Shown: positions 11,441 through 48,781, counted from the first letter of the stretch. The stretch: DNA of 64,000 nucleotides from Flavobacteriaceae bacterium (GCA_965250265.1 CBDFNO010000012.1:456582-520581), one strand, 5' to 3'. Translations and numbers: made by a program. The notes: generated from the letters alone by a model not told the origin.

Positions 11441-12517
11441 TTAATTCACTTTAAACTGAAGCTTTTTTGCTTCAGAACTATCATTATCAATCTTTTTATT
11501 TAAATCATTATCGAACAGTCGATTCAAATTATTCCCTGCTAGATCTTCCAGGCGAGAGGCTATAATAAGGGTATAATCACCCTTTTCAAAAGGAGTATTC
11601 GGCTTGAAATTTATGATTTTTTCGTTTTTGAATATATAATATTCTCCATCTATATCGACTCCATTTGAATCCTGAATATTGAAGGCTTCAAGCGCCAATA
11701 TAGCATCCATAGGTTCTTTAAAATTAATGGTAAGTAACTGCTGTGTAGCATTTAGATTCCACTCATCTACAATTGGTTTGTGACTATCACGGTCAGTAAC
11801 CCTGAATATTTTTTCATAGGAATGATCCAATGTATTACTATCGGCATCTTTCCAATTGCCATCAACAGTTAGCGTGTATTCATTATCTTTTAATATGGGC
11901 AGTCCTTTTTCTTTATTCGGAATCAGATCCGTTTTAATTCGTCCCGGATCCAACCATAAGGTCAGACGCGTATGTTCTGTATTCCATAATTCCGTTTCCA
12001 AATTTAAAAAAACATCTACTTTTTCATTTGTAGTATTATTAGTAACCGATATAAAATCTAGAGATGATCGAACTTCTTGCATAGGTTTGGAAAACAGAAA
12101 ATACATTTTTAATAAATTCTCAGGAACCGCATCCGAAGTAGGATAGATTACCACAAGTTCAGGGCTAGTATTATTGGTGCTTTCTATTACTGAAAAATTA
12201 GAAACTTGTTTGCCTTTATTGAATAACAAATAACTATGCCCATCTGAAAAAGGAATTACGGGCTTAAAAAAATAAATACTATTCTTCAAAGTTAAAGTAC
12301 CTAAAACTGGAGTTTCACTATTACCTTCTAAATACACTTTTGCATCACTTGAAGCTATTTTTGAAGAAAAAGAGACCCCAACTGCTTTCTCAGCCTCATA
12401 GATAACATTGATTTCGTTTAGATTTAAATCCTTATTACAGCTTATAGATACAGATAAAACACAAAAAAAGACCAAGAGAAACTTGGTCTTTTTTTTATAT
12501 AATTTTAATATAATCAT
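11441..12517 (-). CDS. Hypothetical lipoprotein, Ig-like/beta-rich
   Basis: 358 aa with a lipoprotein-type signal (VLSVSISC). It overlaps the upstream ORF by 4 nt, which suggests an operon. I recognise no family. Confidence 0.55.
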   Translation of the reverse strand: MIILKLYKKKTKFLLVFFCVLSVSISCNKDLNLNEINVIYEAEKAVGVSFSSKIASSDAKVYLEGNSETPVLGTLTLKNSIYFFKPVIPFSDGHSYLLFNKGKQVSNFSVIESTNNTSPELVVIYPTSDAVPENLLKMYFLFSKPMQEVRSSLDFISVTNNTTNEKVDVFLNLETELWNTEHTRLTLWLDPGRIKTDLIPNKEKGLPILKDNEYTLTVDGNWKDADSNTLDHSYEKIFRVTDRDSHKPIVDEWNLNATQQLLTINFKEPMDAILALEAFNIQDSNGVDIDGEYYIFKNEKIINFKPNTPFEKGDYTLIIASRLEDLAGNNLNRLFDNDLNKKIDNDSSEAKKLQFKVN

Positions 12518-13626
12518 AGTCTAGCAGTAGAACCGCTTCTTAGTATCAATTTACCTCCTGAGGTACGTTGCATAAAAACAACGTTAGTGGCATCCAAATT
12601 ATCCATTTGTAATACGTTAACCAAAGGCAAGGACACATATGGGACGCCATCGGTTCCATATCCATCAACCGGTTTGATTAAAGATTCTTTAAAATTGACA
12701 ATTGCATCATAATTAATAATCATTAAAGAACGATTGGTATTAGACATCAAAAAATATGGCTTCCCTTCCCTTACAAAGGTAATCATATCTAACGGAGAAT
12801 TTCCAGAACCCAACTCGGCGACAGTTCTTCCCTTTACATGTGTTCCACCCTTCAATTCATCCATAGGAAATAAAACTAAAGGTGTGCATGTATAACTGGC
12901 CATTAAATAATCCTTATCCTGGATGCTAATGATATCGAATGTTTTAATTGGTGATAAAGTTTCATATCGTCCATGAGCCGCATGATATATCTCTAAGGAG
13001 GCATACTCCTGAGAATCATTGAAAGGAAATGGAATACTTCTGAACGTAGAACTAAATTCCTCATTAGATAATCCGGTAACCATCACATTCCCATCATGGT
13101 ATTTAAGATCAGAAATGGCCCAAGTACGTTGAGAACGTCCTCTTCTATCCTTCGCTTCTGCAGAAATTGGATTTTTTAATCCTATTTTTGAATAACTAAT
13201 ATTTTTTAAGGATACATTTTCTAAAGTTTCACCATTCAATTTTAATACTACTGGTGTTCCATCTCCTACATTCACTGAAAAATAAACATTTTTGGAAGCT
13301 GGATTCACAGCCATATCTGTAACTTTAATATTATCCACCGCTGTACCTAGTGAAGCAGCGATCTTAATATCAAAATCCTGAATATTAATTTTTTCGGCCT
13401 TTTCATTTACGGTTACATCTTTAGTATCCAACGCATATATGGCTGCGTTTTTAGAATCTCCGATAAATAACACACCTTCTGGACCAAAACTAAGTGCATT
13501 TATAGAGGCAATTTCAGTATCTCCAACAACAAAATTTGCAGTGAGGTTACTTTCTTTTTTACTAACGGCAGCAATGGTTATATACGCCATTCCACATATA
13601 ACTATGCCAAAGAAAAGTTTTTTCAT
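12514..13626 (-). CDS. Hypothetical secreted protein, beta-rich
   Basis: 370 aa with an N-terminal signal/anchor. It is translationally coupled to the downstream lipoprotein ORF. Confidence 0.55.
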   Translation of the reverse strand: MKKLFFGIVICGMAYITIAAVSKKESNLTANFVVGDTEIASINALSFGPEGVLFIGDSKNAAIYALDTKDVTVNEKAEKINIQDFDIKIAASLGTAVDNIKVTDMAVNPASKNVYFSVNVGDGTPVVLKLNGETLENVSLKNISYSKIGLKNPISAEAKDRRGRSQRTWAISDLKYHDGNVMVTGLSNEEFSSTFRSIPFPFNDSQEYASLEIYHAAHGRYETLSPIKTFDIISIQDKDYLMASYTCTPLVLFPMDELKGGTHVKGRTVAELGSGNSPLDMITFVREGKPYFLMSNTNRSLMIINYDAIVNFKESLIKPVDGYGTDGVPYVSLPLVNVLQMDNLDATNVVFMQRTSGGKLILRSGSTARL

Positions 13627-29719: not shown

Positions 29720-31753
29720 TTAAATGAGTCCATTATATTTTCTTAAAAACCACTCCATCGCTAGACTCAATGCTATAAGTGATAATAGGTATTTAAAATC
29801 GATCAAAGGTACGATATTTTTACTACTCTTTTGTACTGTAGCAAATCTAGAATCTGCTATTAAATCATTAATAAGTGAATTGGGATTGGCAATAAAATAA
29901 CTTACACCTTTACTATTAGTAGCCACTTGTTGCAACTTTGTTACATTAGCATTCAAAAATTGTTGTTCTACATTATAATCTAAAATTTTTAAATGCCCCG
30001 ATTGACTAACTTCTCCGCTATTTGCACTAACAGTAAAATCGTATTCTGAAGGCAAAAAATCACTCAAATTTACTTCATAAGAATTATTTTTTAGAATAAA
30101 TGGCAAGATAGTAATGCTGCCAGAGTCAACATTTTTTAATGTTATGCTTAGCGTTGCTTTATTATCGAATTCATAATTTCTATTAAAAAACTGTCCAGAA
30201 ATTTTTATATCTCCAATACCATTATAAAACGACTCGTAAATTAAATTTAAACGGCTTCTCTTTTTATTTGAAGCCAAATACTGTACAAGTTTACCAATAA
30301 AGTTATCGAATTGTTGAAACGATTTTTTATTTAAATAGCTTTGTGCTCTCCATTTCCAAATATTTTCGCCTAATAAAAGTGCTTCTCTCGTATTGTTGTT
30401 TTCGAAAGTTACCAATAAGGGTTGTTGGTCTACCGAATCATTAAATACACGTTTGTACAATATAGTTTCGATAGGTGTATTAAATGCTACGCTACCAAAC
30501 TCGGTTTGCAATGGTGGAAAGGAATTAAAACTCAAATCATCAATAATAAATGTAGAATAATTAGAATTGACAGATGGTTGAAAGTCTTCCGTTTGCAGTG
30601 TAATCTCTTGAGAATAATTATTTTGAATCCCATTTAAAAATGACCATTGTGTTTGTGTGCCAGTTATTACAAAAGTATTGTCACCAGCTTTTTCAATTGC
30701 ATCAAAAACCGCTTTAAATTTATTATTCGGTTGATATAAAATTGTGAGTTGAAAGTTATCTTTTCTATCTAAAAAAGCATTCGGCTTTAAAATAGAAACG
30801 CTGCGTTGCTCGTTACTTTCAATAGCTTTCTTAAGGGCTCCCAAATCTGGGTGTAGGATATCACTAACAATAGCGACATTCATTTTTTCATCTATAATTT
30901 CGACAGCAAACGGCTTTACGTTATTAACCTTGTTTTGCTCTGTTTCTAAAGGAATAATCGTAGCATAGAAAGTATTTACTCCTACTCTATTTGCAGGTAG
31001 CGTTAGGTTAATAATATGAGAGTTTTGTGTTTTAGAAAAATTTAAATTTTTCTTGAACACTGTAGAATTTCCAGATGTGATAATTAATTGTGAGTTTACA
31101 TTTTGTGAACCATTATAGACTGCAATAATTTCTACTGGAAATTTATTTTTTAAATATGCATATTTATTTACATTTAACTGCTGAATTTTTAAATCGGAAT
31201 ATCTAATAGTATCTCCCAGAATTACAGAAAATATTGGTTGTTTGTATTTTTGTGAAGTAAACTCATAATCATTACCAAAAGTTTGATTGCCATCAGTTAT
31301 TAACACCATTGGAGCGACTGTAGTATTATATACTTGAGATAGATTGTCAAAAGCATTTGCAATATTACTTTGTGTTTTATCAAAGTTTAATGAATCTAAT
31401 GGTTCCAAATCTTTCCCAAATGTGTAATACTCCACATTAAAATTTTCATTTAAAGAGTTATCTTGTTTTAAATTATCAAGTAGTTGTTCTACATTTTTAG
31501 TATGCTTTAAATGTTTTATAGATTCTGAATTATCTATAGCAACTATAAGGTTTGGTTTTTCGCTATGGAATTTTGTTTGTTCAAATTTTGGATTTATAAT
31601 TAATAGCAAAACGGAAAATAATGTAACGAACCTTAAAAAGGCAAATAATTTATTTAAGTTACTTTTTTTAGATTTATATAAATATTGAAACAGCGCTAAT
31701 AAAAGCGCTGCAATTCCAGCAATAATAATATATATAACCGTCTCCGTTGTCAT
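29720..31753 (-). CDS. Membrane-anchored protein with a vWA-like N-terminal region
   Basis: The ATG at 31753 gives MTTETVIYIIIAGIAALLLALF (TM helix). IVAIDNSESI resembles a MIDAS DxSxS motif, and there is a C-terminal TM helix. The ORF-track N-terminal extension overlaps fabG and is rejected. Confidence 0.55.
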   Translation of the reverse strand: MTTETVIYIIIAGIAALLLALFQYLYKSKKSNLNKLFAFLRFVTLFSVLLLIINPKFEQTKFHSEKPNLIVAIDNSESIKHLKHTKNVEQLLDNLKQDNSLNENFNVEYYTFGKDLEPLDSLNFDKTQSNIANAFDNLSQVYNTTVAPMVLITDGNQTFGNDYEFTSQKYKQPIFSVILGDTIRYSDLKIQQLNVNKYAYLKNKFPVEIIAVYNGSQNVNSQLIITSGNSTVFKKNLNFSKTQNSHIINLTLPANRVGVNTFYATIIPLETEQNKVNNVKPFAVEIIDEKMNVAIVSDILHPDLGALKKAIESNEQRSVSILKPNAFLDRKDNFQLTILYQPNNKFKAVFDAIEKAGDNTFVITGTQTQWSFLNGIQNNYSQEITLQTEDFQPSVNSNYSTFIIDDLSFNSFPPLQTEFGSVAFNTPIETILYKRVFNDSVDQQPLLVTFENNNTREALLLGENIWKWRAQSYLNKKSFQQFDNFIGKLVQYLASNKKRSRLNLIYESFYNGIGDIKISGQFFNRNYEFDNKATLSITLKNVDSGSITILPFILKNNSYEVNLSDFLPSEYDFTVSANSGEVSQSGHLKILDYNVEQQFLNANVTKLQQVATNSKGVSYFIANPNSLINDLIADSRFATVQKSSKNIVPLIDFKYLLSLIALSLAMEWFLRKYNGLI

Positions 31754-31755
31754 AT

Positions 31756-32502
31756 TTAGGTTAGCATTCCACCATCTACATTTAAAGTTTGTCCTGTAAT
31801 ATATGCCGACATATCGCTTGCTAAAAACACACATGCATTTGCAATATCTTCTGGAGTTCCTCCTCGTTTTAAAGGAATTGCTTTTCTCCAACCATCTACT
31901 ATAGTTTCATCAAGTTTAGAAGTCATTTCGGTTTCGATAAATCCTGGCGCAATCACATTACTTCTAATGTTCCTTGAACCCAATTCTAATGCAACAGATT
32001 TAGAAAACCCAATAATTCCAGCTTTTGAAGCTGCATAATTAGTTTGCCCAGCATTACCTTTTACACCTACAACAGAACTCATATTAATAATTGAGCCTTT
32101 CCTTTGTTTCATCATTGGGCGAATTACAGCTTTAGTCAAATTAAAAACCGATTTTAAATTCACTTCAATAACCTTATCAAAATCTTCTTCACTAATACGT
32201 ATCAATAGATTGTCTTTTGTAATTCCTGCATTATTAATAAGTACATCTATGCTACCGAACTCTTTTAAAACTTCAGCTGCTAAGTCCTGTGCCTGGTCAA
32301 AATCGACTGCATTACTTTGGTAGCCTTTAGCATTTACACCCAAAGCATTTAATTCTTTTTCTAATTCTTGAGCCGCTTCAACAGATGAGCTATATGTAAA
32401 CGCAACATTAGCTCCTTGTTCTGCAAAAACTTTGGCAATACCTCTACCAATTCCGCGACTTGCTCCTGTAATTATGGCTGTTTTCCCTTCTAATAATTTC
32501 AT
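31756..32502 (-). CDS. fabG: 3-oxoacyl-ACP reductase
   Basis: 248 aa SDR with TGASRGIG and the YAASKAG catalytic motif. Confidence 0.9.
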   Translation of the reverse strand: MKLLEGKTAIITGASRGIGRGIAKVFAEQGANVAFTYSSSVEAAQELEKELNALGVNAKGYQSNAVDFDQAQDLAAEVLKEFGSIDVLINNAGITKDNLLIRISEEDFDKVIEVNLKSVFNLTKAVIRPMMKQRKGSIINMSSVVGVKGNAGQTNYAASKAGIIGFSKSVALELGSRNIRSNVIAPGFIETEMTSKLDETIVDGWRKAIPLKRGGTPEDIANACVFLASDMSAYITGQTLNVDGGMLT

Positions 32503-41815: not shown

Positions 41816-41956
41816 ATGAAAACTAAAAAAGTTTTAATCGCAATTGCGATTTTCGGAGGTGTTTTGTTTACAGCGCAAGCTACAAACTTAATAGACCTAA
41901 ATGAACAACTTAGAACAGAAGTCAAAAGAAATACACCTAAGCCGCCAGCGGGTTAA
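41816..41956 (+). CDS. Possible 46-aa secreted peptide
   Basis: The ATG at 41816 gives MKTKKVLIAIAIFGGVLFTAQA|TNLIDLNEQLRTEVKRNTPKPPAG, a clean signal peptide with an AQA cleavage site. It overlaps the 41901 ORF by 56 nt and is below the ORF-track size cutoff. Confidence 0.3.
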   Translation: MKTKKVLIAIAIFGGVLFTAQATNLIDLNEQLRTEVKRNTPKPPAG

Positions 41957-42440
41957 GAGTATTGATAAGAGTAGCCTTATTATTGGTAGTATAATAGCAA
42001 CCTTAATTGCAGCTACTCCTTTTCTATTCTATTTACATGAAAGTGTTCCAGAAACAAATGTCTGGGACACTTTTTTGTTTACTTTTGAAAGTCATTTTTA
42101 TGAGAATGCTAATCAAGCAATGTGGCTAATTACGCAAAAGGCCATTCCTCTCATGTTATTATTTATTTGGTTCTTTACAAATCGGCATTGGTGGTATCAT
42201 GCACTTTTAGTTCCAATAGCCATGTATATTTATCAGCTTGTATCTTTTTTTAATGTTGAATTAGATATTATGGATCAGTTTGAATTAGTTTATTTAGTTC
42301 CAGTTATGGCCATTATTATTCCTTCTATTTATTTGATTCGTGCTAAAATGTTTGCTAAAATAAACGATGCTGATAAGACGTTAGAAGAACTTGAAGAGGA
42401 ATTCAAGATTAAACCGCGTTCGTTTAGAGATTATTTTTAG
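41901..42440 (+). CDS. 4-TM membrane protein of unknown family (copy 1)
   Basis: 179 aa with four hydrophobic helices. The conserved blocks PFLFYL, PET.VW, IWF.T..HWW are shared with 47417-48031. The tail is AKINDADKTLEELEEEFKIKPRSFRDYF. Confidence 0.65.
   Translation: MNNLEQKSKEIHLSRQRVKSIDKSSLIIGSIIATLIAATPFLFYLHESVPETNVWDTFLFTFESHFYENANQAMWLITQKAIPLMLLFIWFFTNRHWWYHALLVPIAMYIYQLVSFFNVELDIMDQFELVYLVPVMAIIIPSIYLIRAKMFAKINDADKTLEELEEEFKIKPRSFRDYF
42342..42440 (+). repeat. Left copy of a 99-nt imperfect direct repeat (3' end of the 4-TM gene)
   Basis: 79 of 99 nt are identical to 48683-48781. Both copies are in frame and end at ...PRSFRDYF-TAG. Confidence 0.85.
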
Positions 42441-44643
42441 TTAAAATTACATTGTTTAATTCTAGCCAATAATCACTGTAAAAGTTTGAAGTTTCCAATA
42501 ATTGACTATGAGTGCCATAAACTTTAGTTTTACCTTGTTCTATAATATAAATTTTATCTGCAATATATCTTAATGAATGAAGTCTATGAGAGATAAAAAT
42601 AATACTCAATTCACTCTTAAACTTGTTAAGCAGTTGTAATACAGATAGTTCTGTCTTTCTGTCCATGGCAGAGGTGAATTCATCTAACAGCAGCAATTTA
42701 GGTTTTTTATAGAGCACACGTATTAAGGCTATAATTTGTTTTTGTCCACCCGATAAATTAATGCCTTCCTCGCCTAAAAGTGTTGCATACCCTTGAGGCA
42801 ATTCTTTAATAAAAATATCGAAACCATAATCTTCACAAAACTTCACAATATGTTCAGGTGCATCTTCCTTTCCCAATAAAATATTATCTATTATGTTACC
42901 ACTAAAAATAATAATATCTTGAGGAATTACTCCTATTAAATCTCTCCAATATACTGTTGAAATTTCTTTTAGATTGTATTTGCTATTAATAATTATAGCT
43001 CCTTCTTCAAAAGGATAAAACTTTTGCAATACTTGTCCTAATGTACTTTTGCCGCAACCACTTTCTCCCACAATAGCAATACATTCATTTTGTTGAATAG
43101 ATAAATTAATGTTTTTTAAAAGCTGACTTCTTCCTGCAAAACGAAAAGACAAATTTTTAATTTCTAAAGAATTAAAAACGCTAAGATTTTTTGTGCCTTG
43201 TTGCTCTTTTTCAATTGAAGTAAATTCATACATTCTGTTAAAAGCAACTTTTGCTTCATTTATTGGTATAGTAATTAAAGCTAAACTTGCAACAGACGGT
43301 AATAAAGAGCCTGCAATTCCTAGAATTGCCATAAGCTCTCCTAATAACATAGCTTCATTATATACTTGTACGGAAGTAAACAACAAAATACCAATTAAGA
43401 ACAGCACACTAAATACGCCCGAAAACACAGATAGCCTTACATTTATTTTTCCTAAAATAAAAGCTTTTGTTTGATAATTACCATAAATAATCTGATTCAG
43501 TTTTTGAAAGACAGATTGTCTATTATTGTTTTTTATGGTTGCAATGCCTTGCATTGAGCTTATATAATTACTCTCGCTAAAAGCATAGCCTTGCATAACT
43601 TCTTTTTGGGCAGTAATAATACCCTTGTTAAAACTATAAATTAGTATAAAATAAAAAGGTAAACTAATAAAAGCAATTAAGCCCGTTTGCCAGGAATAAT
43701 AAAACAAAAAACCTAAAGAAACTATAGTAACTAAAGCATTAATAATAACGTTACTGGCTACCATAGAAATAACACGTTGTACACGCTGTGTATCGTTTAG
43801 TCTTGCTACCAACTCCCCTATTTTACGAGTATCAAAAAATGGTTTTGGTAAGTGTAGTAACGATGTATAAAAACTATCAATAATCCTGTTGTTAAAATCT
43901 TTGGTTTGGTGTATTAAAAAATAATTTCTTATGGCTGTAAAAAACACTCTTACCAACAATAAAAAAGCAACTAATATAATTCCTGTCAAGAGTTTTGTAA
44001 TGTCTTTTGACGGCAAAATATCATCAATTAATTTTTGAGAAAAAACTGCCATAGCCATTCCTAAAACTGCAATACCAATACCTAACAAAATGCTAAACCT
44101 AAGTAGTTTATAATCGTCTTTTAGAATACTTAAAAACCATTGCTTTTTATTCGATTTTAGAGTTTCTGTTTTTTCAAAACTATGATTTGGAGTAAGGGTT
44201 AAGCAGGTTTTAGATTTCCATACAGTTTCCAACTCCTCTTTGGTATAATATACAATACCTTTTGCAGGATCTCCAATTATAAATTTGTCGTTTTCAAAAC
44301 CATAGCACACTAAATAGTGCTGTAATTGCTCTTCAATAATAACGTGAAGTATTAGAGGCTCTGCATTGTCAATTACTGCCTGTATATTGGCTTCGTTCCC
44401 TTGTGAATTAAACCCTAGATTATTTGCTGCTTGGTACAAACCTAATAGGGTTGTTCCTTGCCTTGTTGTACCACTTAATTCGCGTAGCTTTTCTAAAGTG
44501 CTAGTGCCTTGATAATAGTTTATTATAGATAATAAACAGGCTACACCACAATCGCTTTGATCGTGCTGTAATACTAGCGTTTTTGATAATCGTTTTAGAT
44601 TGTATTGGGGTTTTGTTTGGAGCTTCATGATTATCAGATTCAT
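42424..44643 (-). CDS. Peptidase-C39 ABC transporter (double-glycine leader cleavage and export)
   Basis: 739 aa. The N-terminal C39 domain has QHDQSDCGVACL (catalytic Cys), LQHYLVCYG (His) and IGDPAKG. Then come six TM helices and an NBD (GESGCGKST, LSGGQKQ, LLLLDE). Confidence 0.9.
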   Translation of the reverse strand: MNLIIMKLQTKPQYNLKRLSKTLVLQHDQSDCGVACLLSIINYYQGTSTLEKLRELSGTTRQGTTLLGLYQAANNLGFNSQGNEANIQAVIDNAEPLILHVIIEEQLQHYLVCYGFENDKFIIGDPAKGIVYYTKEELETVWKSKTCLTLTPNHSFEKTETLKSNKKQWFLSILKDDYKLLRFSILLGIGIAVLGMAMAVFSQKLIDDILPSKDITKLLTGIILVAFLLLVRVFFTAIRNYFLIHQTKDFNNRIIDSFYTSLLHLPKPFFDTRKIGELVARLNDTQRVQRVISMVASNVIINALVTIVSLGFLFYYSWQTGLIAFISLPFYFILIYSFNKGIITAQKEVMQGYAFSESNYISSMQGIATIKNNNRQSVFQKLNQIIYGNYQTKAFILGKINVRLSVFSGVFSVLFLIGILLFTSVQVYNEAMLLGELMAILGIAGSLLPSVASLALITIPINEAKVAFNRMYEFTSIEKEQQGTKNLSVFNSLEIKNLSFRFAGRSQLLKNINLSIQQNECIAIVGESGCGKSTLGQVLQKFYPFEEGAIIINSKYNLKEISTVYWRDLIGVIPQDIIIFSGNIIDNILLGKEDAPEHIVKFCEDYGFDIFIKELPQGYATLLGEEGINLSGGQKQIIALIRVLYKKPKLLLLDEFTSAMDRKTELSVLQLLNKFKSELSIIFISHRLHSLRYIADKIYIIEQGKTKVYGTHSQLLETSNFYSDYWLELNNVILTKNNL

Positions 44644-45182
44644 TCCCGATATTTATCGGGATTAGCAGGAATTAATGCTTTTAAAATAGCTTTGGGCCTT
44701 AGTTGCCCCTTGTGTTTTTTAACTAACTCTTGCTTTTTGTTGTAAATCAAAATGTAAGGAATAGAGTTAGCATCAAATCGATTAGAAAAAGTATGAGTGC
44801 TATCATATAAAAAAGTTATGTTTTGTTGGGTTAATAAATTATAAGTTTTTGCAAAGGCCCTTATTGTTTCAATAGGCTCTGTAGACACAAAAAGGAGTCG
44901 TACATGAATAAATTGGGCTAAATTATCACCAATGCTTTGAGCTTCATGTTGGCAAAAATCACACTCCGTATTAAAATAGATAAATACAGTTGGAGTGTTT
45001 GTTACTAATTCTGCATTTGTAAATATTGTATTATCTAATGTTTTAAAGCTAAAGTTAGGAATTGATTGTAAGGTTTTTGATACCTCGCTTTTATATTGCA
45101 TTTTTGTTACAACACTATATCCTAAATATCCTAAAAGTGACAATGCAAGTATTGGTATAATTATTTTAAGTATTTTTTTCAT
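44640..45182 (-). CDS. Membrane-anchored TlpA/ResA-like thioredoxin-fold protein
   Basis: 180 aa with an N-terminal anchor and a thioredoxin fold. The active site is FNTECDFCQ (CxxC = CDFC). Its stop overlaps the ABC start in an ATGA. Confidence 0.8.
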   Translation of the reverse strand: MKKILKIIIPILALSLLGYLGYSVVTKMQYKSEVSKTLQSIPNFSFKTLDNTIFTNAELVTNTPTVFIYFNTECDFCQHEAQSIGDNLAQFIHVRLLFVSTEPIETIRAFAKTYNLLTQQNITFLYDSTHTFSNRFDANSIPYILIYNKKQELVKKHKGQLRPKAILKALIPANPDKYRE

Positions 45183-45257
45183 ACTAAAAGGTCTATATTC
45201 TAATGTCTAACAGCTACTTGTGCTGAGCTTGTTTCAGTAAGCGGTCTTTTTATCTTT

Positions 45258-45923
45258 TTAAGACATATTAAGTGTTAAAAACATAATTGCAATCACCCAA
45301 ATAAGTAAACCAACACCATAACTACTACCGACTATTATAAATCCTTTTTTAGTAGTGGATTTGATTTCTTTACCAATTAAGTATGCCAAAATAACCCAAT
45401 AGGCTAACTCAAATAAATTAAGTACTTGTAATGGATACACAAACCAGGGCTTTAAATCTTGATAGCCTGTTATATTAATTGCAGAGAACGGATAAAAATA
45501 TTGTAAATCCTCTAGCGTGTAATCTTGATGAAAAATATAAAACCAAAGGGTTTTAAATATAATGACCAGTAAAAACACAAACTCGGCTTTTACAACACTA
45601 TTAAAGAGTGTTTTGTATTTTATTTCTTTATTAAAAAAGAAACAACCTACATCTATAATGGCTGCTATAATGCTTATTTTCAATAGTAACAATAATGGTA
45701 TAGCAATATAACCCAACCATTGCCATTTTTTTTTAAGATTTAGAGCTTCAAGTATTTGCTCTTGTGTGAATTGTTCAGATAAAGAAGAAGCATAAAGGTC
45801 TTCAGTATTTAATATTTCCTTACTTATGTAACCAAATAACATATAGGAAATAAATAATAACAGGAATAAATATTTTCTTTTTAAAAACATAAAGCTGAAT
45901 AGTGTAACAAGAAATATTAGCAT
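45258..45923 (-). CDS. Polytopic membrane protein (about 5 TM, Yip1-like topology); candidate immunity or accessory protein
   Basis: 221 aa and strongly hydrophobic, lying between the toxin and export genes. The family assignment is uncertain. Confidence 0.55.
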   Translation of the reverse strand: MLIFLVTLFSFMFLKRKYLFLLLFISYMLFGYISKEILNTEDLYASSLSEQFTQEQILEALNLKKKWQWLGYIAIPLLLLLKISIIAAIIDVGCFFFNKEIKYKTLFNSVVKAEFVFLLVIIFKTLWFYIFHQDYTLEDLQYFYPFSAINITGYQDLKPWFVYPLQVLNLFELAYWVILAYLIGKEIKSTTKKGFIIVGSSYGVGLLIWVIAIMFLTLNMS

Positions 45924-45959
45924 TAAAAAAGGCTGAAAAAATTAGAATTAATCAGCCTT
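45924..45959 (-). terminator. Intra-locus hairpin plus U-tract
   Basis: On the minus strand, AAGGCTGA-(15 nt)-TCAGCCTT is followed by TTTTA and runs directly into the ATG at 45923. Confidence 0.5.
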
Positions 45960-46024
45960 AATTCAGGATATTTATTTCTCTTACTTTAATAGTTAAGATA
46001 AATTCTTAAAAATTACTTCAAGTA

Positions 46025-46441
46025 TTAATTACTGCATTTACTTAACCTTAAATAATTTTTCCTACCAAAAGTCTGCCAATAAACAATAATTAACATAGGT
46101 ATTATCAAAGCCAACCCTAAATAGTTTGAAATAAGATCAAACATTTTTAAAACCAGTCCTCCAAAAAAGCAGGCATAAATAAATATAAGCAATCCATTTT
46201 GTATTTGACTGGTTACCCTTATTTTGGTTGAACCATCTAATGTAGATTTATCAAGATTTATAATGTTTGAACTATTATTGTTTACCTTAATAAATAACTT
46301 TGAAGAATTACTATCAACTTGGAGATTCTTTATTTTTTCATTTGGTTCTATATAATCGATAAATTTATCATTAACAAAAACTTTTAAAGGTCTAACCTTA
46401 ATTAAATAATTATTCTCTCTTATTATTGTTATTGTTGCCAT
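46025..46441 (-). CDS. 138-aa protein with a beta-rich N-domain and two C-terminal TM helices; candidate immunity or accessory protein
   Basis: It starts 21 nt downstream of the peptide precursor. The C-terminal part LLIFIYACFFGGLVL...LALIIPMLIIVYW is hydrophobic. Confidence 0.55.
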   Translation of the reverse strand: MATITIIRENNYLIKVRPLKVFVNDKFIDYIEPNEKIKNLQVDSNSSKLFIKVNNNSSNIINLDKSTLDGSTKIRVTSQIQNGLLIFIYACFFGGLVLKMFDLISNYLGLALIIPMLIIVYWQTFGRKNYLRLSKCSN

Positions 46442-46462
46442 TTTCTTTTGATTACAAAGTTA

Positions 46463-46645
46463 TTACTCACAAGCTAAACTTACCCCGAAGCCAACTGCCC
46501 CAACTACAACTGCAATTCCTGCCCCAAATCCAGACCACCAAGAAGCAAATCCGATTACTACTGCTGCACCGCTAATACCATCAGCCAATTCTTGACATGT
46601 TCCACCATTGACTAATTCCATTTGGTTTAATTCTAATGTTTTCAT
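46463..46645 (-). CDS. Double-glycine-leader peptide toxin (bacteriocin-like) precursor
   Basis: MKTLELNQMELVNGG|TCQELADGISGAAVVIGFASWWSGFGAGIAVVVGAVGFGVSLACE. The leader fits the GG-leader pattern (L-12, M-7, V-4, GG). It is co-oriented with a C39 ABC exporter. Confidence 0.8.
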   Translation of the reverse strand: MKTLELNQMELVNGGTCQELADGISGAAVVIGFASWWSGFGAGIAVVVGAVGFGVSLACE

Positions 46646-46822: not shown

Positions 46823-46856
46823 GAAAGCTTCTGCTATTGTAGAGGCTTTCTTTTTT
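46823..46856 (+). terminator. Plus-strand hairpin plus T6 with no upstream plus-strand gene
   Basis: GAAAGCTTCT-gctattgt-AGAGGCTTTC (10 bp including one G-U pair), followed by TTTTTT. The reverse strand has no U-tract. Confidence 0.45.
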
Positions 46857-46965: not shown

Positions 46966-47322
46966 ATGAACAAAGCTATACATAGAATACTTGACCTTAT
47001 TGCTCATTTGGATGTTAGTGCCAGGCAGTTTGACCTATCAATTGGGACTGCAAACGGTTATACGTTGCGCATGCATAAAAACAATGCATCTGTTGGAAGT
47101 GATGTCATTGAGCGCATTGTAAAAACTTACCCTCAAATAAATTTAGTATGGCTTATTACAGGCAAAGGAGAAATGTTTATTAAATCTACAAAGCCAAAAA
47201 CTATTGACAATGTTAATATTGAATCCTTTATAAACGAGCAACTTAATAAAAAGTGGAGCGAGGAAAAAAAGGAGTTGCTTGATGAGATTATGAAAGAAAT
47301 AAACTTGCAATTAAAAAAATAG
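46966..47322 (+). CDS. cI/XRE-type helix-turn-helix regulator
   Basis: 118 aa with an N-terminal HTH (SARQFDLSIGTANGYTLRM) and the block YPQINLVWLITGKGEMF, typical of the phage-cI-like HTH proteins common in Bacteroidota. Confidence 0.7.
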   Translation: MNKAIHRILDLIAHLDVSARQFDLSIGTANGYTLRMHKNNASVGSDVIERIVKTYPQINLVWLITGKGEMFIKSTKPKTIDNVNIESFINEQLNKKWSEEKKELLDEIMKEINLQLKK

Positions 47323-47416: not shown

Positions 47417-48031
47417 CTAAACTTCTATCAACTTTTTCCTTAAAACAATAAGTTGCTTTAAATATTCCTCTTTATCCAAAACACTTTTGTTATCTCGTAG
47501 CCCGTTTAATTCCTTTCTTATAATCTTATAATCTTCTGTCTTAAAGTTAGAAAACTCATTCATTAAACTATTTATTTCATCATTGAGTTCATTATTTAAA
47601 CTTTTAGATAAACTATAATAGTTAAGTTTTTTAGAAAGGAATACTAAAAATAGTATTAGAGGAATAGTTAGAGGTAAACTATAAACAAATTCAAACTCAT
47701 CAACATAGCGTAGATCATCATTTAGTATTGATAAAAACTTATAACACTCAATTATAATAGGTACAATTATTGCAAAACGCCACCAGTGTTTACAAGTTAC
47801 AAACCAGATCAATAAAATTAATAAGGTTAATAATTTGTTGGCTAAGGTCCAAAAAAACACATCAATACCTTCATAATAATTTGAGTCAATCCTAAAAATA
47901 AGAGTCTCCCATACTTTCGTTTCCGGAGCTAACCTATAGAGATAGAATAAGAATGGAAGCGCTACAATAATTGTAGCTATTATAATATCTTTTAAGAATA
48001 TTTTTCTTTGTAAAATAACGACGGTTTTCAT
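47417..48031 (-). CDS. 4-TM membrane protein of unknown family (copy 2, inverted relative to copy 1)
   Basis: It is roughly one-third identical by eye to 41901-42440 across all four helices (PFLFYL, PETKVW, LIWFVTCKHWW). The ATG at 48031 is preferred over the TTG at 48058. Confidence 0.65.
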   Translation of the reverse strand: MKTVVILQRKIFLKDIIIATIIVALPFLFYLYRLAPETKVWETLIFRIDSNYYEGIDVFFWTLANKLLTLLILLIWFVTCKHWWRFAIIVPIIIECYKFLSILNDDLRYVDEFEFVYSLPLTIPLILFLVFLSKKLNYYSLSKSLNNELNDEINSLMNEFSNFKTEDYKIIRKELNGLRDNKSVLDKEEYLKQLIVLRKKLIEV

Positions 48032-48510
48032 GAGCTTAAATTTATTTTTAAATGTCAAATTTATACCAGCAGGCCGGCATAATTATTCACAGATCTTAAT
48101 TGTATAGGAAGGAGATTGTCAATTAAGGTTTTATATAGCTGCTATTTTAGTAAATTTTATTAAGCCCATTTAGTAATAGACTTAAAATAACAGTAATATT
48201 ACAAAAAATATAGAATATAATCTATAATAATGTTTTGAAATTCCACTGCCAGGAATATTCTTAAGTTGTTTTATTTAGGTAATATCCAAAGAATTACATT
48301 TTTATGCATTTCCCATTGTGGTTTTACCACATATTTTTTGTCTACTCGTAAAATACATTTAAGATTTGTATATATTTTATTTTTAAACCAGAAGCAGTAT
48401 AATTATCCATGATAAAAAGGAATATCAGTGTACTTATTATTGAAGATTGTAGCAACATTGCTGATGCTTACAAATATATTTTAGACGGCATCTCTAACAC
48501 TAAATTTAAT

Positions 48511-48542
48511 ATTTGTTTTGCACTAAATTTGTTTTACACTAA
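48511..48542 (+). repeat. 16-bp tandem duplication (ATTTGTTTTGCACTAA / ATTTGTTTTACACTAA)
   Basis: Two adjacent copies differ at one base. Removing either copy restores the REC reading frame. Confidence 0.9.
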
Positions 48543-48682
48543 ACTGTGACGAGACCATATATCATTTAAAACGTAAAAATAACCAATTAGTGCTGTTGGA
48601 TTTACAACTTTCGGTATCTAAAGACGAACGTTATCTTAGTGGAGACGATTTAGGACTTTTAATAAGACAAGCGTACAAAAGA

Positions 48683-48781
48683 GCGAAAATGTTTAATAAA
48701 ATAAACACTGTAGACAAAACCATGGAAGAACTCGAAGAGGAGTTTACAATTAAGCCTCGTTCGTTTAGGGATTATTTTTAG
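48683..48781 (+). repeat. Right copy of the 99-nt imperfect direct repeat
   Basis: 79 of 99 nt are identical to 42342-42440. Many of the differences fall at third codon positions. Confidence 0.85.

Follow-up and report, generated by a model that had tools for sequence, protein, structure and literature searches.

How does a double-glycine peptide leave a Gram-negative cell when neither an adaptor nor an outer-membrane channel is encoded near its exporter, and which protein protects the producer? These questions are raised by a five-gene locus at 42424-46645 in a 64,000-nucleotide (nt) stretch of DNA from a Flavobacteriaceae bacterium (GCA_965250265.1 CBDFNO010000012.1:456582-520581), which we call the window. 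Calling open reading frames (ORFs) on the window gave five ORFs at this place, all on the minus strand, with the same limits as in a first-pass annotation made by a model from the sequence. That annotation had described a peptide-toxin export locus encoding a precursor, a 138-amino-acid (aa) and a 221-aa membrane protein, a thioredoxin, and an ATP-binding cassette (ABC) transporter, and Pfam and NCBIfam agreed with it for the ABC protein and the thioredoxin. The peptide and the 138-aa and 221-aa proteins had no above-threshold match in Pfam or NCBIfam, and the profile searches of 45258-45923 and 46025-46441 that the annotation had proposed found no unrelated well-known family. We consider it likely that the locus is a chromosomal bacteroidetocin-type (class IIf-like) bacteriocin locus built of two modules, an assignment made by gene content, by the leader, and by homology of the transmembrane (TM) protein, with the peptides themselves compared over the leader only. 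The locus comprises the following features.

46463-46645, minus strand: precursor peptide, 60 aa, with the leader codons at 46601-46645
46025-46441, minus strand: 138-aa membrane protein, putative cognate immunity protein
45923-45959, minus strand: terminator-like hairpin with U6, between the 138-aa and 5-TM genes
45258-45890, minus strand: 5-TM inner-membrane protein, 210 aa from its probable start (the ORF reaches 45923, giving 221 aa)
44640-45182, minus strand: membrane-anchored thiol:disulfide oxidoreductase of thioredoxin fold, 180 aa, with CDFC as its CxxC motif
42424-44643, minus strand: peptidase-containing ABC transporter (PCAT), the exporter, 739 aa

The gaps from the precursor gene through the 5-TM gene to the thioredoxin gene measured 21, 101, and 75 nt in turn, and the stop codon of the thioredoxin gene and the start codon of the ABC gene share a 4-nt ATGA overlap. 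The hairpin consists of an 8-bp, G+C-containing stem at 45929-45959 followed by U6 at 45923-45928; its minimum free energy was -12.3 kcal/mol (z = -3.2), and none of 200 shuffled sequences was equally stable. Judged by its sequence, this element may be an attenuator or a terminator, and it parts a variable module (the precursor and 138-aa genes) from a conserved one (the 5-TM, thioredoxin, and PCAT genes). Since the hairpin and its U6 tract overlie the ATG at 45923 and homologues are 205 to 212 aa long, the 5-TM gene probably starts at the ATG at 45890 and encodes 210 aa; the first-pass annotation was thus right about the ORF but probably not about its start. A scan for sigma-70 promoters, with a model that does not cover Bacteroidota promoters, returned sites no more frequent than chance.

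Bacteroidetocins, for which a class IIf has been proposed, are encoded in loci that contain a peptide with a GG leader, a 5-TM protein, a thiol oxidoreductase, and a peptidase-containing ABC transporter (Coyne et al. 2019, PMC6671954). The class is defined by a leader of 15 to 16 aa ending in GG, a mature part of ∼42 to 48 aa, and at least two cysteines, and 19 such peptides were reported from four classes of Bacteroidetes, those of Flavobacteriia coming among others from Tenacibaculum, Elizabethkingia, Chryseobacterium, and a Flavobacterium (PMC6671954). The precursor of the window reads MKTLELNQMELVNGG followed by TCQELADGISGAAVVIGFASWWSGFGAGIAVVVGAVGFGVSLACE. Its leader, MKTLELNQMELVNGG, is of the double-glycine type and 15 aa long, with hydrophobic residues at -12, -7, and -4; its mature part (TCQ...LACE) is a hydrophobic, Gly/Ala-rich stretch of 45 aa with cysteines at positions 2 and 44 and a SWWSG.GAGIA motif. 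An orthologue of the 5-TM protein, a thioredoxin, and an ABC transporter are encoded beside it, and no second such peptide was found anywhere in the window. The 5-TM protein is 53% identical to its homologue in HGW-Bacteroidetes-13 (locus L062), and this organism and its TM protein CVT96_05470p are both present in the supplementary tables of Coyne et al. (PMC6671954), which ties the 5-TM family of the window to the bacteroidetocin "TM protein." The leader also resembled that of the L062 peptides (E = 1.4e-4), a likeness seen in the leader only.

The window and the bacteroidetocin loci share their four core genes and their phylum, and neither has an adaptor or an outer-membrane gene. They differ in gene order, which is TM, peptide, thioredoxin, ABC in Bacteroides but peptide, 138-aa protein, TM, thioredoxin, ABC in the window, and in their cysteines, of which the Bacteroides peptides have four whereas the window peptide has two, near its ends. 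In addition, the loci for bacteroidetocins A and B (Bd-A and Bd-B) have no immunity gene, in contrast to the additional, peptide-linked 138-aa membrane protein found here, and the window locus is chromosomal, lying among housekeeping genes and not on an evident mobile element. Experimentally, bacteroidetocin B was less active after deletion of any one of TM protein, oxidoreductase, and peptide, and the four genes were enough for activity in Escherichia coli (PMC6671954). Neither the TM protein nor the oxidoreductase gave immunity, and the producers were self-sensitive (PMC6671954). The target of Bd-A is BamA (Matano et al. 2021, PMC8546649).

We scanned a set of genomes in which each GTDB species is represented once, using the motif YP[LF]Qx[LIV]N[LVI]FE, taken from a narrower alignment of the 5-TM protein (the most diverse alignment had no stretch conserved enough), and obtained 312 confirmed loci, of which 80 were kept. 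ORFs were called in all kept loci and scored against the window proteins. The loci came mostly from Flavobacteriaceae but also from Paludibacter (Bacteroidales), Chitinophagaceae, Saprospiraceae, Capnocytophaga, and HGW-Bacteroidetes-13. Essentially all 80 loci, where the contig allows, had the order TM, thioredoxin, ABC on one strand, with the 5-TM gene always immediately preceding the other two. The block is found again in dozens of genomes, and the arrangement is not due to chance. The whole five-gene block also accompanies the precursor in other genomes, a point on which the first-pass annotation had let its reading depend: the identical order was found in Leptobacterium (L023), Allomuricauda (L027), and Flagellimonas (L050), and in L088 the block is the same but for one additional small peptide ORF that separates the 138-aa gene from the 5-TM gene. 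When 473 flanking ORFs were clustered, divergent XRE-type helix-turn-helix (HTH) regulators recurred at 20 loci, TPR-AraC proteins at 16, and LuxR-type response regulators at 7; the other recurrent families were unrelated housekeeping genes.

The ABC protein combines Peptidase_C39, six-helix ABC_membrane, and ABC_tran domains by Pfam and NCBIfam. Its best NCBIfam match was TIGR01193 (bacteriocin_ABC) with 388 bits versus 325 bits for the HlyB type, so that it scores better on a Gram-positive-type bacteriocin exporter model than on the HlyB-type model. The motif of the C39 catalytic cysteine was present in the window protein and in all 72 full-length homologues. The 180-aa protein matched AhpC-TSA, Redoxin, and Thioredoxin_2 above or near the cutoffs, and its CxxC motif (CDFC) and N-terminal hydrophobic anchor fit a TlpA/ResA-like periplasmic thioredoxin, although the match to ResA itself was weak (31 bits versus a cutoff of 170). 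Among the 81 thioredoxin homologues of related loci, the CxxC motif was kept in every one, mostly as CDFC, CEYC, CDYC, or CEFC, and the N-terminal hydrophobic anchor was kept in 78.

Upstream of this core, the related loci carry one to five small ORFs on the same strand with the leader MK.LELNQMENL.GG, and the leader of the window precursor is near-identical to those of the ∼90 peptides that adjoin related export cores. These 90 peptides had a median leader of 15 aa and a median mature length of 46.5 aa; Gly and Ala made up 36% of their residues, and 80 of them had exactly two cysteines, the first near residue 6 and the last ∼3 residues from the end. The window peptide is typical of this set. 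Within 150 nt after 57 of 112 candidate peptide ORFs (detected by regular expression, a few of them spurious) we found a small ORF whose product has one or two hydrophobic helices and ends in a tail rich in Lys, an arrangement typical of class II bacteriocin immunity genes. One example is the ORF at 7818-7985 of L001 (Formosa), which is absent from public gene calls; many of the loci L007 to L086 have in the same slot, after GG peptides, ORFs of 50 to 80 aa with two helices and a Lys-rich tail. These small two-helix ORFs are probable unannotated immunity genes. At L013 (5427-6911) and L038, the slot after the peptide is taken not by a small two-helix ORF but by a 12-TM DUF5687 protein. Two Aquimarina loci, L037 (5841-6815) and L040 (5757-6729), encode, beside the usual hydrophobic two-Cys peptides, a second class of peptides in which the leader (MKSKKKLSLKKMN..L.S.KGG) is long and rich in Lys and the core is hydrophilic with four Cys.

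Which protein confers immunity had been left undecided by the first-pass annotation. The 138-aa protein now offers a fairly clear, if inferred, answer, and the 5-TM protein can be ruled out (see below). The 138-aa family is small, with 12 clusters retrieved by a single-sequence query and 43 by a profile. An AlphaFold2 (AF2) model (pLDDT 90) showed a seven-strand beta-sandwich (residues 1 to 78), a TM hairpin (82 to 100 and 106 to 124), and a C-terminal strand (131 to 137) that pairs back onto the sandwich. A Foldseek search of this model against the PDB gave nothing significant, the best matches being generic Ig-like ones (best E = 0.055). The charge distribution predicts a cytoplasmic location for both sandwich and tail, with ∼5 residues in the periplasm.

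We then examined the gene context of the 138-aa protein in 14 distinct loci. At 11 of them (the window, L004/L005, L006, L023, L027, L050, L087, L088, L090, and two more distant pairs, L018 and L033), its gene followed, at -4 to 72 nt, the gene for a peptide of one subfamily, whose pattern is C..L..G..G.A.I.G..[SA]WW[ST]G.G.GI...C. Of the other contexts, L002/L003 had the gene beside a decayed peptide without the N-terminal Cys segment, L089 had it beside a leader followed by stop codons, and L014 had it without an adjacent peptide; the export core was not nearby in L002 to L005 and L089. The presence of the gene was uncoupled from the similarity of the core: L008, whose TM protein is 75% identical to that of the window, has different peptides and no 138-aa gene, yet the gene is present in L050, whose TM protein is 54% identical. 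The slot that it occupies is held in other cassettes by the small two-helix ORFs. The linkage to one peptide subfamily, the survival of orphan copies, and the equivalence of this slot together suggest that the 138-aa protein is the cognate immunity protein. We also observed that L005 (GCA_009993675.1) is labelled as a metagenome-assembled genome of Zetaproteobacteria; a GG peptide of the Flavobacteriia type and a homologue of the 138-aa protein are encoded on its contig, which may be mis-binned.

In the mechanism that we propose, the C39 domain of the ABC transporter would recognize the 60-aa precursor by its 15-aa leader, cut after Gly15, and pump the peptide across the inner membrane. The anchored CxxC thioredoxin would then join Cys2 to Cys44 on the periplasmic side and so staple the ends of the hydrophobic, Gly-rich 45-mer, with the 5-TM protein as a putative accessory subunit of the exporter or of the oxidation step. 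The 138-aa protein would shield the inner membrane of the producer from this peptide subfamily, and the peptide would exit the periplasm by means for which the locus has no gene, be it a TolC-family channel, vesicles, or lysis. While the gene identities and content, the motifs, the synteny, and the linkage of the peptide to the 138-aa protein were observed here, the functional steps (cleavage site, disulfide, role of the 5-TM protein, immunity, and outer-membrane route) lean on the Bacteroides experiments and on inference. We hold it as a tentative proposal, with the odds against it, that the 138-aa protein represents a new class of immunity proteins (an Ig-like sandwich plus a TM hairpin), that it and the many two-helix ORFs of its slot show flavobacterial loci to encode dedicated immunity, and that the core forms a distinct, two-step pathway of export and oxidation for hydrophobic peptides in Bacteroidota that is independent of adaptor and TolC.

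The 138-aa protein might instead be a peptide-specific cytoplasmic chaperone or docking factor, whose sandwich holds the hydrophobic precursor and passes it to the ABC transporter. Its sandwich and basic C-terminal tail are indeed predicted to lie in the cytoplasm, where precursor and C39 domain are also located, and the protein is strictly tied to one peptide subfamily. However, copies survive beside a decayed peptide (L002/L003 and L089) or without any peptide (L014); a chaperone that has lost its client would not be retained, whereas immunity genes often occur as orphans in bacteriocin loci. Moreover, other peptide subfamilies use the same core without a 138-aa protein. We therefore regard a chaperone as unlikely and favor the immunity function.

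As to the route across the outer membrane, the first-pass annotation had stated that the window contains no HlyD or TolC component. We ran every window ORF of at least 245 aa through Pfam and likewise found no match to the HlyD and TolC/OEP families among them; the window ORFs are mainly housekeeping genes, among them those for the synthesis of leucine, histidine, and lipid A, for topoisomerase IV, and for the dehydrogenases of proline and alanine, and a 370-aa ORF at 12514-13626 on the minus strand was without any Pfam match. HlyD and OEP were also absent from the 25 families listed (including every family with at least three members) among 123 flanking ORFs of 300 to 520 aa at the 80 related loci. 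These negative results cover the 64-kb window and the flanks, and a TolC-family gene elsewhere in the genome is possible. Five Flavobacterium loci, including L072 (10868-13264, minus strand), have a gene for an OMP_b-brl_3/TonB-dependent-receptor-like barrel just downstream of the ABC gene and convergent with it, which was found neither in the window nor at most related loci; the barrel may be an outer-membrane partner peculiar to this lineage, or its position may be fortuitous.

The absence of adaptor and channel had seemed unusual to the annotation by comparison with colicin V, which proved to be the wrong reference, as the bacteroidetocin loci and, in the flanking ORFs scanned, the 80 relatives also have neither. 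The missing components are a class-wide feature, already noted for bacteroidetocins, and not an anomaly. Coyne et al. left it undecided whether bacteroidetocins cross the outer membrane by active secretion or escape when cells lyse (PMC6671954). As modelled, the parts of the 5-TM and 138-aa proteins that face the periplasm are too short to reach the outer membrane.

Could the 5-TM protein nevertheless, alone or with the 138-aa protein, replace both the HlyD-type adaptor and the TolC-type channel and make a self-sufficient exporter that crosses two membranes in one step? It always adjoins the exporter, toxin activity depends on its relative in Bacteroides, and in E. coli four genes are enough for activity (PMC6671954); in Bacillus, moreover, the Yip1-family protein YknW modulates the assembly of an ABC peptide-efflux complex (PMC4887032). 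However, YknW acts together with the adaptor YknX and not in its stead (PMC4887032), and the E. coli overlay assay included a chloroform treatment, in a host with a TolC of its own (PMC6671954). The model of the 5-TM protein offers periplasmic loops of ∼30 residues, with neither a coiled coil nor a barrel that could cross the periplasm or make a pore in the outer membrane, and the 138-aa protein exposes ∼5 residues there. With such loops, the suggestion of the annotation that an uncharacterized membrane protein takes over from the adaptor becomes unlikely, and we judge a complete exporter of this kind distinctly improbable.

A word-index search with the 5-TM protein retrieved 816 homologues, with 63 to 85% identity in marine Flavobacteriaceae, and a HMMER profile search extended the family to 1175 clusters at 50% identity (E ≤ 1e-3), nearly all of 205 to 235 aa and matched end to end; cluster look-up of the distant homologues returned mostly unnamed metagenome proteins. 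The AF2 model (pLDDT 76) shows five membrane helices and two periplasmic loops of ∼30 residues each, which carry its best-conserved motifs, including LEDLQYFYP, and a Foldseek search of the model against the PDB gave no significant neighbor (best E = 5). The sole recurring Pfam signal was Yip1 (PF04893), which was sub-threshold in 11 of 69 diverse family members (best E, 1.5e-4); the window protein scored 13.7 bits (E = 0.057) and did not reach the gathering score of 28.6 bits. In Bacillus, YknW, of the Yip1 family, modulates the assembly of an ABC peptide-efflux complex (PMC4887032), which makes it plausible by analogy that the 5-TM protein is an accessory subunit of the exporter or of the oxidation step. 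The YknWXYZ system likewise joins a small polytopic Yip1-family protein to an ABC transporter for SDP, a peptide toxin with a disulfide, although the window protein resembles Yip1 only below the threshold; YknYZ, however, is of the MacB type, works with the adaptor YknX, and serves resistance, whereas the exporter of the window serves production (PMC4887032). A role of the 5-TM protein in reoxidizing the thioredoxin in the manner of DsbB or VKOR was rejected, as it has no conserved cysteine pair; its single cysteine (GCFFF) is invariant in close relatives but missing in L006 (GGFFN), and it is not a conserved column in the broad alignment. The 5-TM protein was also rejected as the immunity protein, being 60 to 75% identical whatever the peptide type; its Bacteroides relative gave no protection (PMC6671954).

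That the peptides are exported signalling or envelope peptides and not toxins, the core being a housekeeping pathway of peptide export and oxidation in Flavobacteriia, is highly improbable. In its favor, the core is very widespread (312 reference species by a single motif and 1175 clusters at 50% identity), 60 to 75% identical between genera, and recurrently accompanied by regulators (XRE-type HTH at 20 loci, TPR-AraC at 16, and response regulators at 7), but the peptide cores are hypervariable behind a constant leader, with one to five different peptides per locus, the small membrane-protein partners after the peptides and the orphan partner genes are features of bacteriocin/immunity cassettes, one peptide has a sub-threshold match to Pfam Bacteriocin_IIc, and four relatives kill Bacteroidales experimentally (PMC6671954).

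Some observations do weigh against our reading of the locus as a bacteriocin system with its own immunity. Conservation of 60 to 75% across genera is unusual for the core of an accessory toxin locus and could point to an added housekeeping role, and the Yip1 similarity of the 5-TM protein stays below the Pfam threshold. Furthermore, an inner-membrane immunity protein does not fit a mode of action on BamA at the surface. The Bacteroides bacteroidetocins have four cysteines, target BamA at the cell surface, and leave their producers self-sensitive (PMC8546649). If the immunity reading is right, the two-Cys subfamily described here must therefore act differently or hit another target than BamA.

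The locus also resembles, in part, export systems outside the bacteroidetocins. With colicin V (CvaA-CvaB-TolC) it shares the double-glycine leader, export by an ABC transporter with a C39 peptidase, and an immunity gene (putative in the window) beside the toxin gene; colicin V has an HlyD adaptor and a TolC channel, whereas neither was found in the window or beside the 80 related loci. The window has a thioredoxin and a 5-TM protein instead, and its ABC protein favors the Gram-positive-type model over HlyB. The pediocin-like class IIa operons (pedABCD) encode a GG-leader peptide, an adjacent immunity gene, a PCAT, and the thioredoxin-like PedC, which serves the formation of correct disulfides. 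The window locus shares all four of these components (GG peptide, putative immunity gene, PCAT, and thioredoxin-like protein). However, pediocin immunity proteins are cytosolic four-helix bundles, in contrast to the beta-sandwich with a TM hairpin of the 138-aa model, and the YGNGV motif is missing from the window peptide just as the 5-TM protein is missing from pediocin operons; moreover, the producer in the window has an outer membrane. Sublancin-type glycocin loci (sunA-sunT-bdbA-sunS-bdbB) combine a GG-leader peptide, a PCAT, and thiol-disulfide oxidoreductases, the same three components as in the window, which has no glycosyltransferase and whose peptide has no evident glycosylation motif. 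Three relatives with the same peptide/138-aa pair do carry a GT2 glycosyltransferase in the core, at L006 (4037-5113), L087 (6470-7588), and L090 (8088-9167). There the glycosyltransferase gene lies between the cassette or the 5-TM gene and the thioredoxin gene, and the peptide that goes with the 138-aa partner is of the SAWWTG type; these loci look like a glycocin-like variant.

Divergent from the locus lies one further feature that may bear on its regulation.

48409-48763, plus strand: response-regulator remnant, frameshifted and truncated

By tblastn, it aligned in two frames with intact regulators from L012, L013, and L014 and spanned the receiver domain only (∼residues 4 to 122 of 220). 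Intact regulators of this type lie divergently upstream of the peptide genes in L012, L013, L014, and L028. The remnant is probably the decayed regulator of the locus, which may thus have lost its regulator. Between the precursor gene and a divergent gene for a 118-aa protein (46966-47322), a 12-bp hairpin with a T-run was found on the plus strand at 46823-46850, where no plus-strand gene ends. The locus is flanked by two genes for paralogous membrane proteins that are 41 to 45% identical, one of 179 aa (41901-42440, plus strand) and one of 213 aa (47417-48058, minus strand); their family was not recognized. Further out, at 48650-48778 on the plus strand, the final 44 codons of the 179-aa gene recur as a copy with 68% identity. 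The paralogues and the partial copy may be the trace of a rearrangement or an insertion. The two flanking proteins were rejected as parts of the system, as only one other locus, L018, has them. Elsewhere in the window, a 723-aa ORF at 29720-31891 on the minus strand had a weak VWA match alone.

An exporter of double-glycine peptides that is encoded without adaptor and channel genes in Gram-negative bacteria is already known, as a property of bacteroidetocin loci. What our analysis adds is modest: the cassette of the peptide and the 138-aa protein and, more generally, the organization into cassette plus core. A three-gene core is present in hundreds of reference species across Bacteroidota in an invariant order, and the diversity of the toxins lies in swappable cassettes, each of a peptide and a small membrane protein, upstream of this core. 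The cassettes provide candidates for self-protection, which the Bacteroides model loci lack, and the loci form a large comparative set for asking how hydrophobic peptides exit the periplasm. If the immunity proposal, tentative as it is, were true, the two-Cys peptides with stapled ends would attack the inner membrane instead of BamA, unlike the toxins of the self-sensitive Bacteroides producers.

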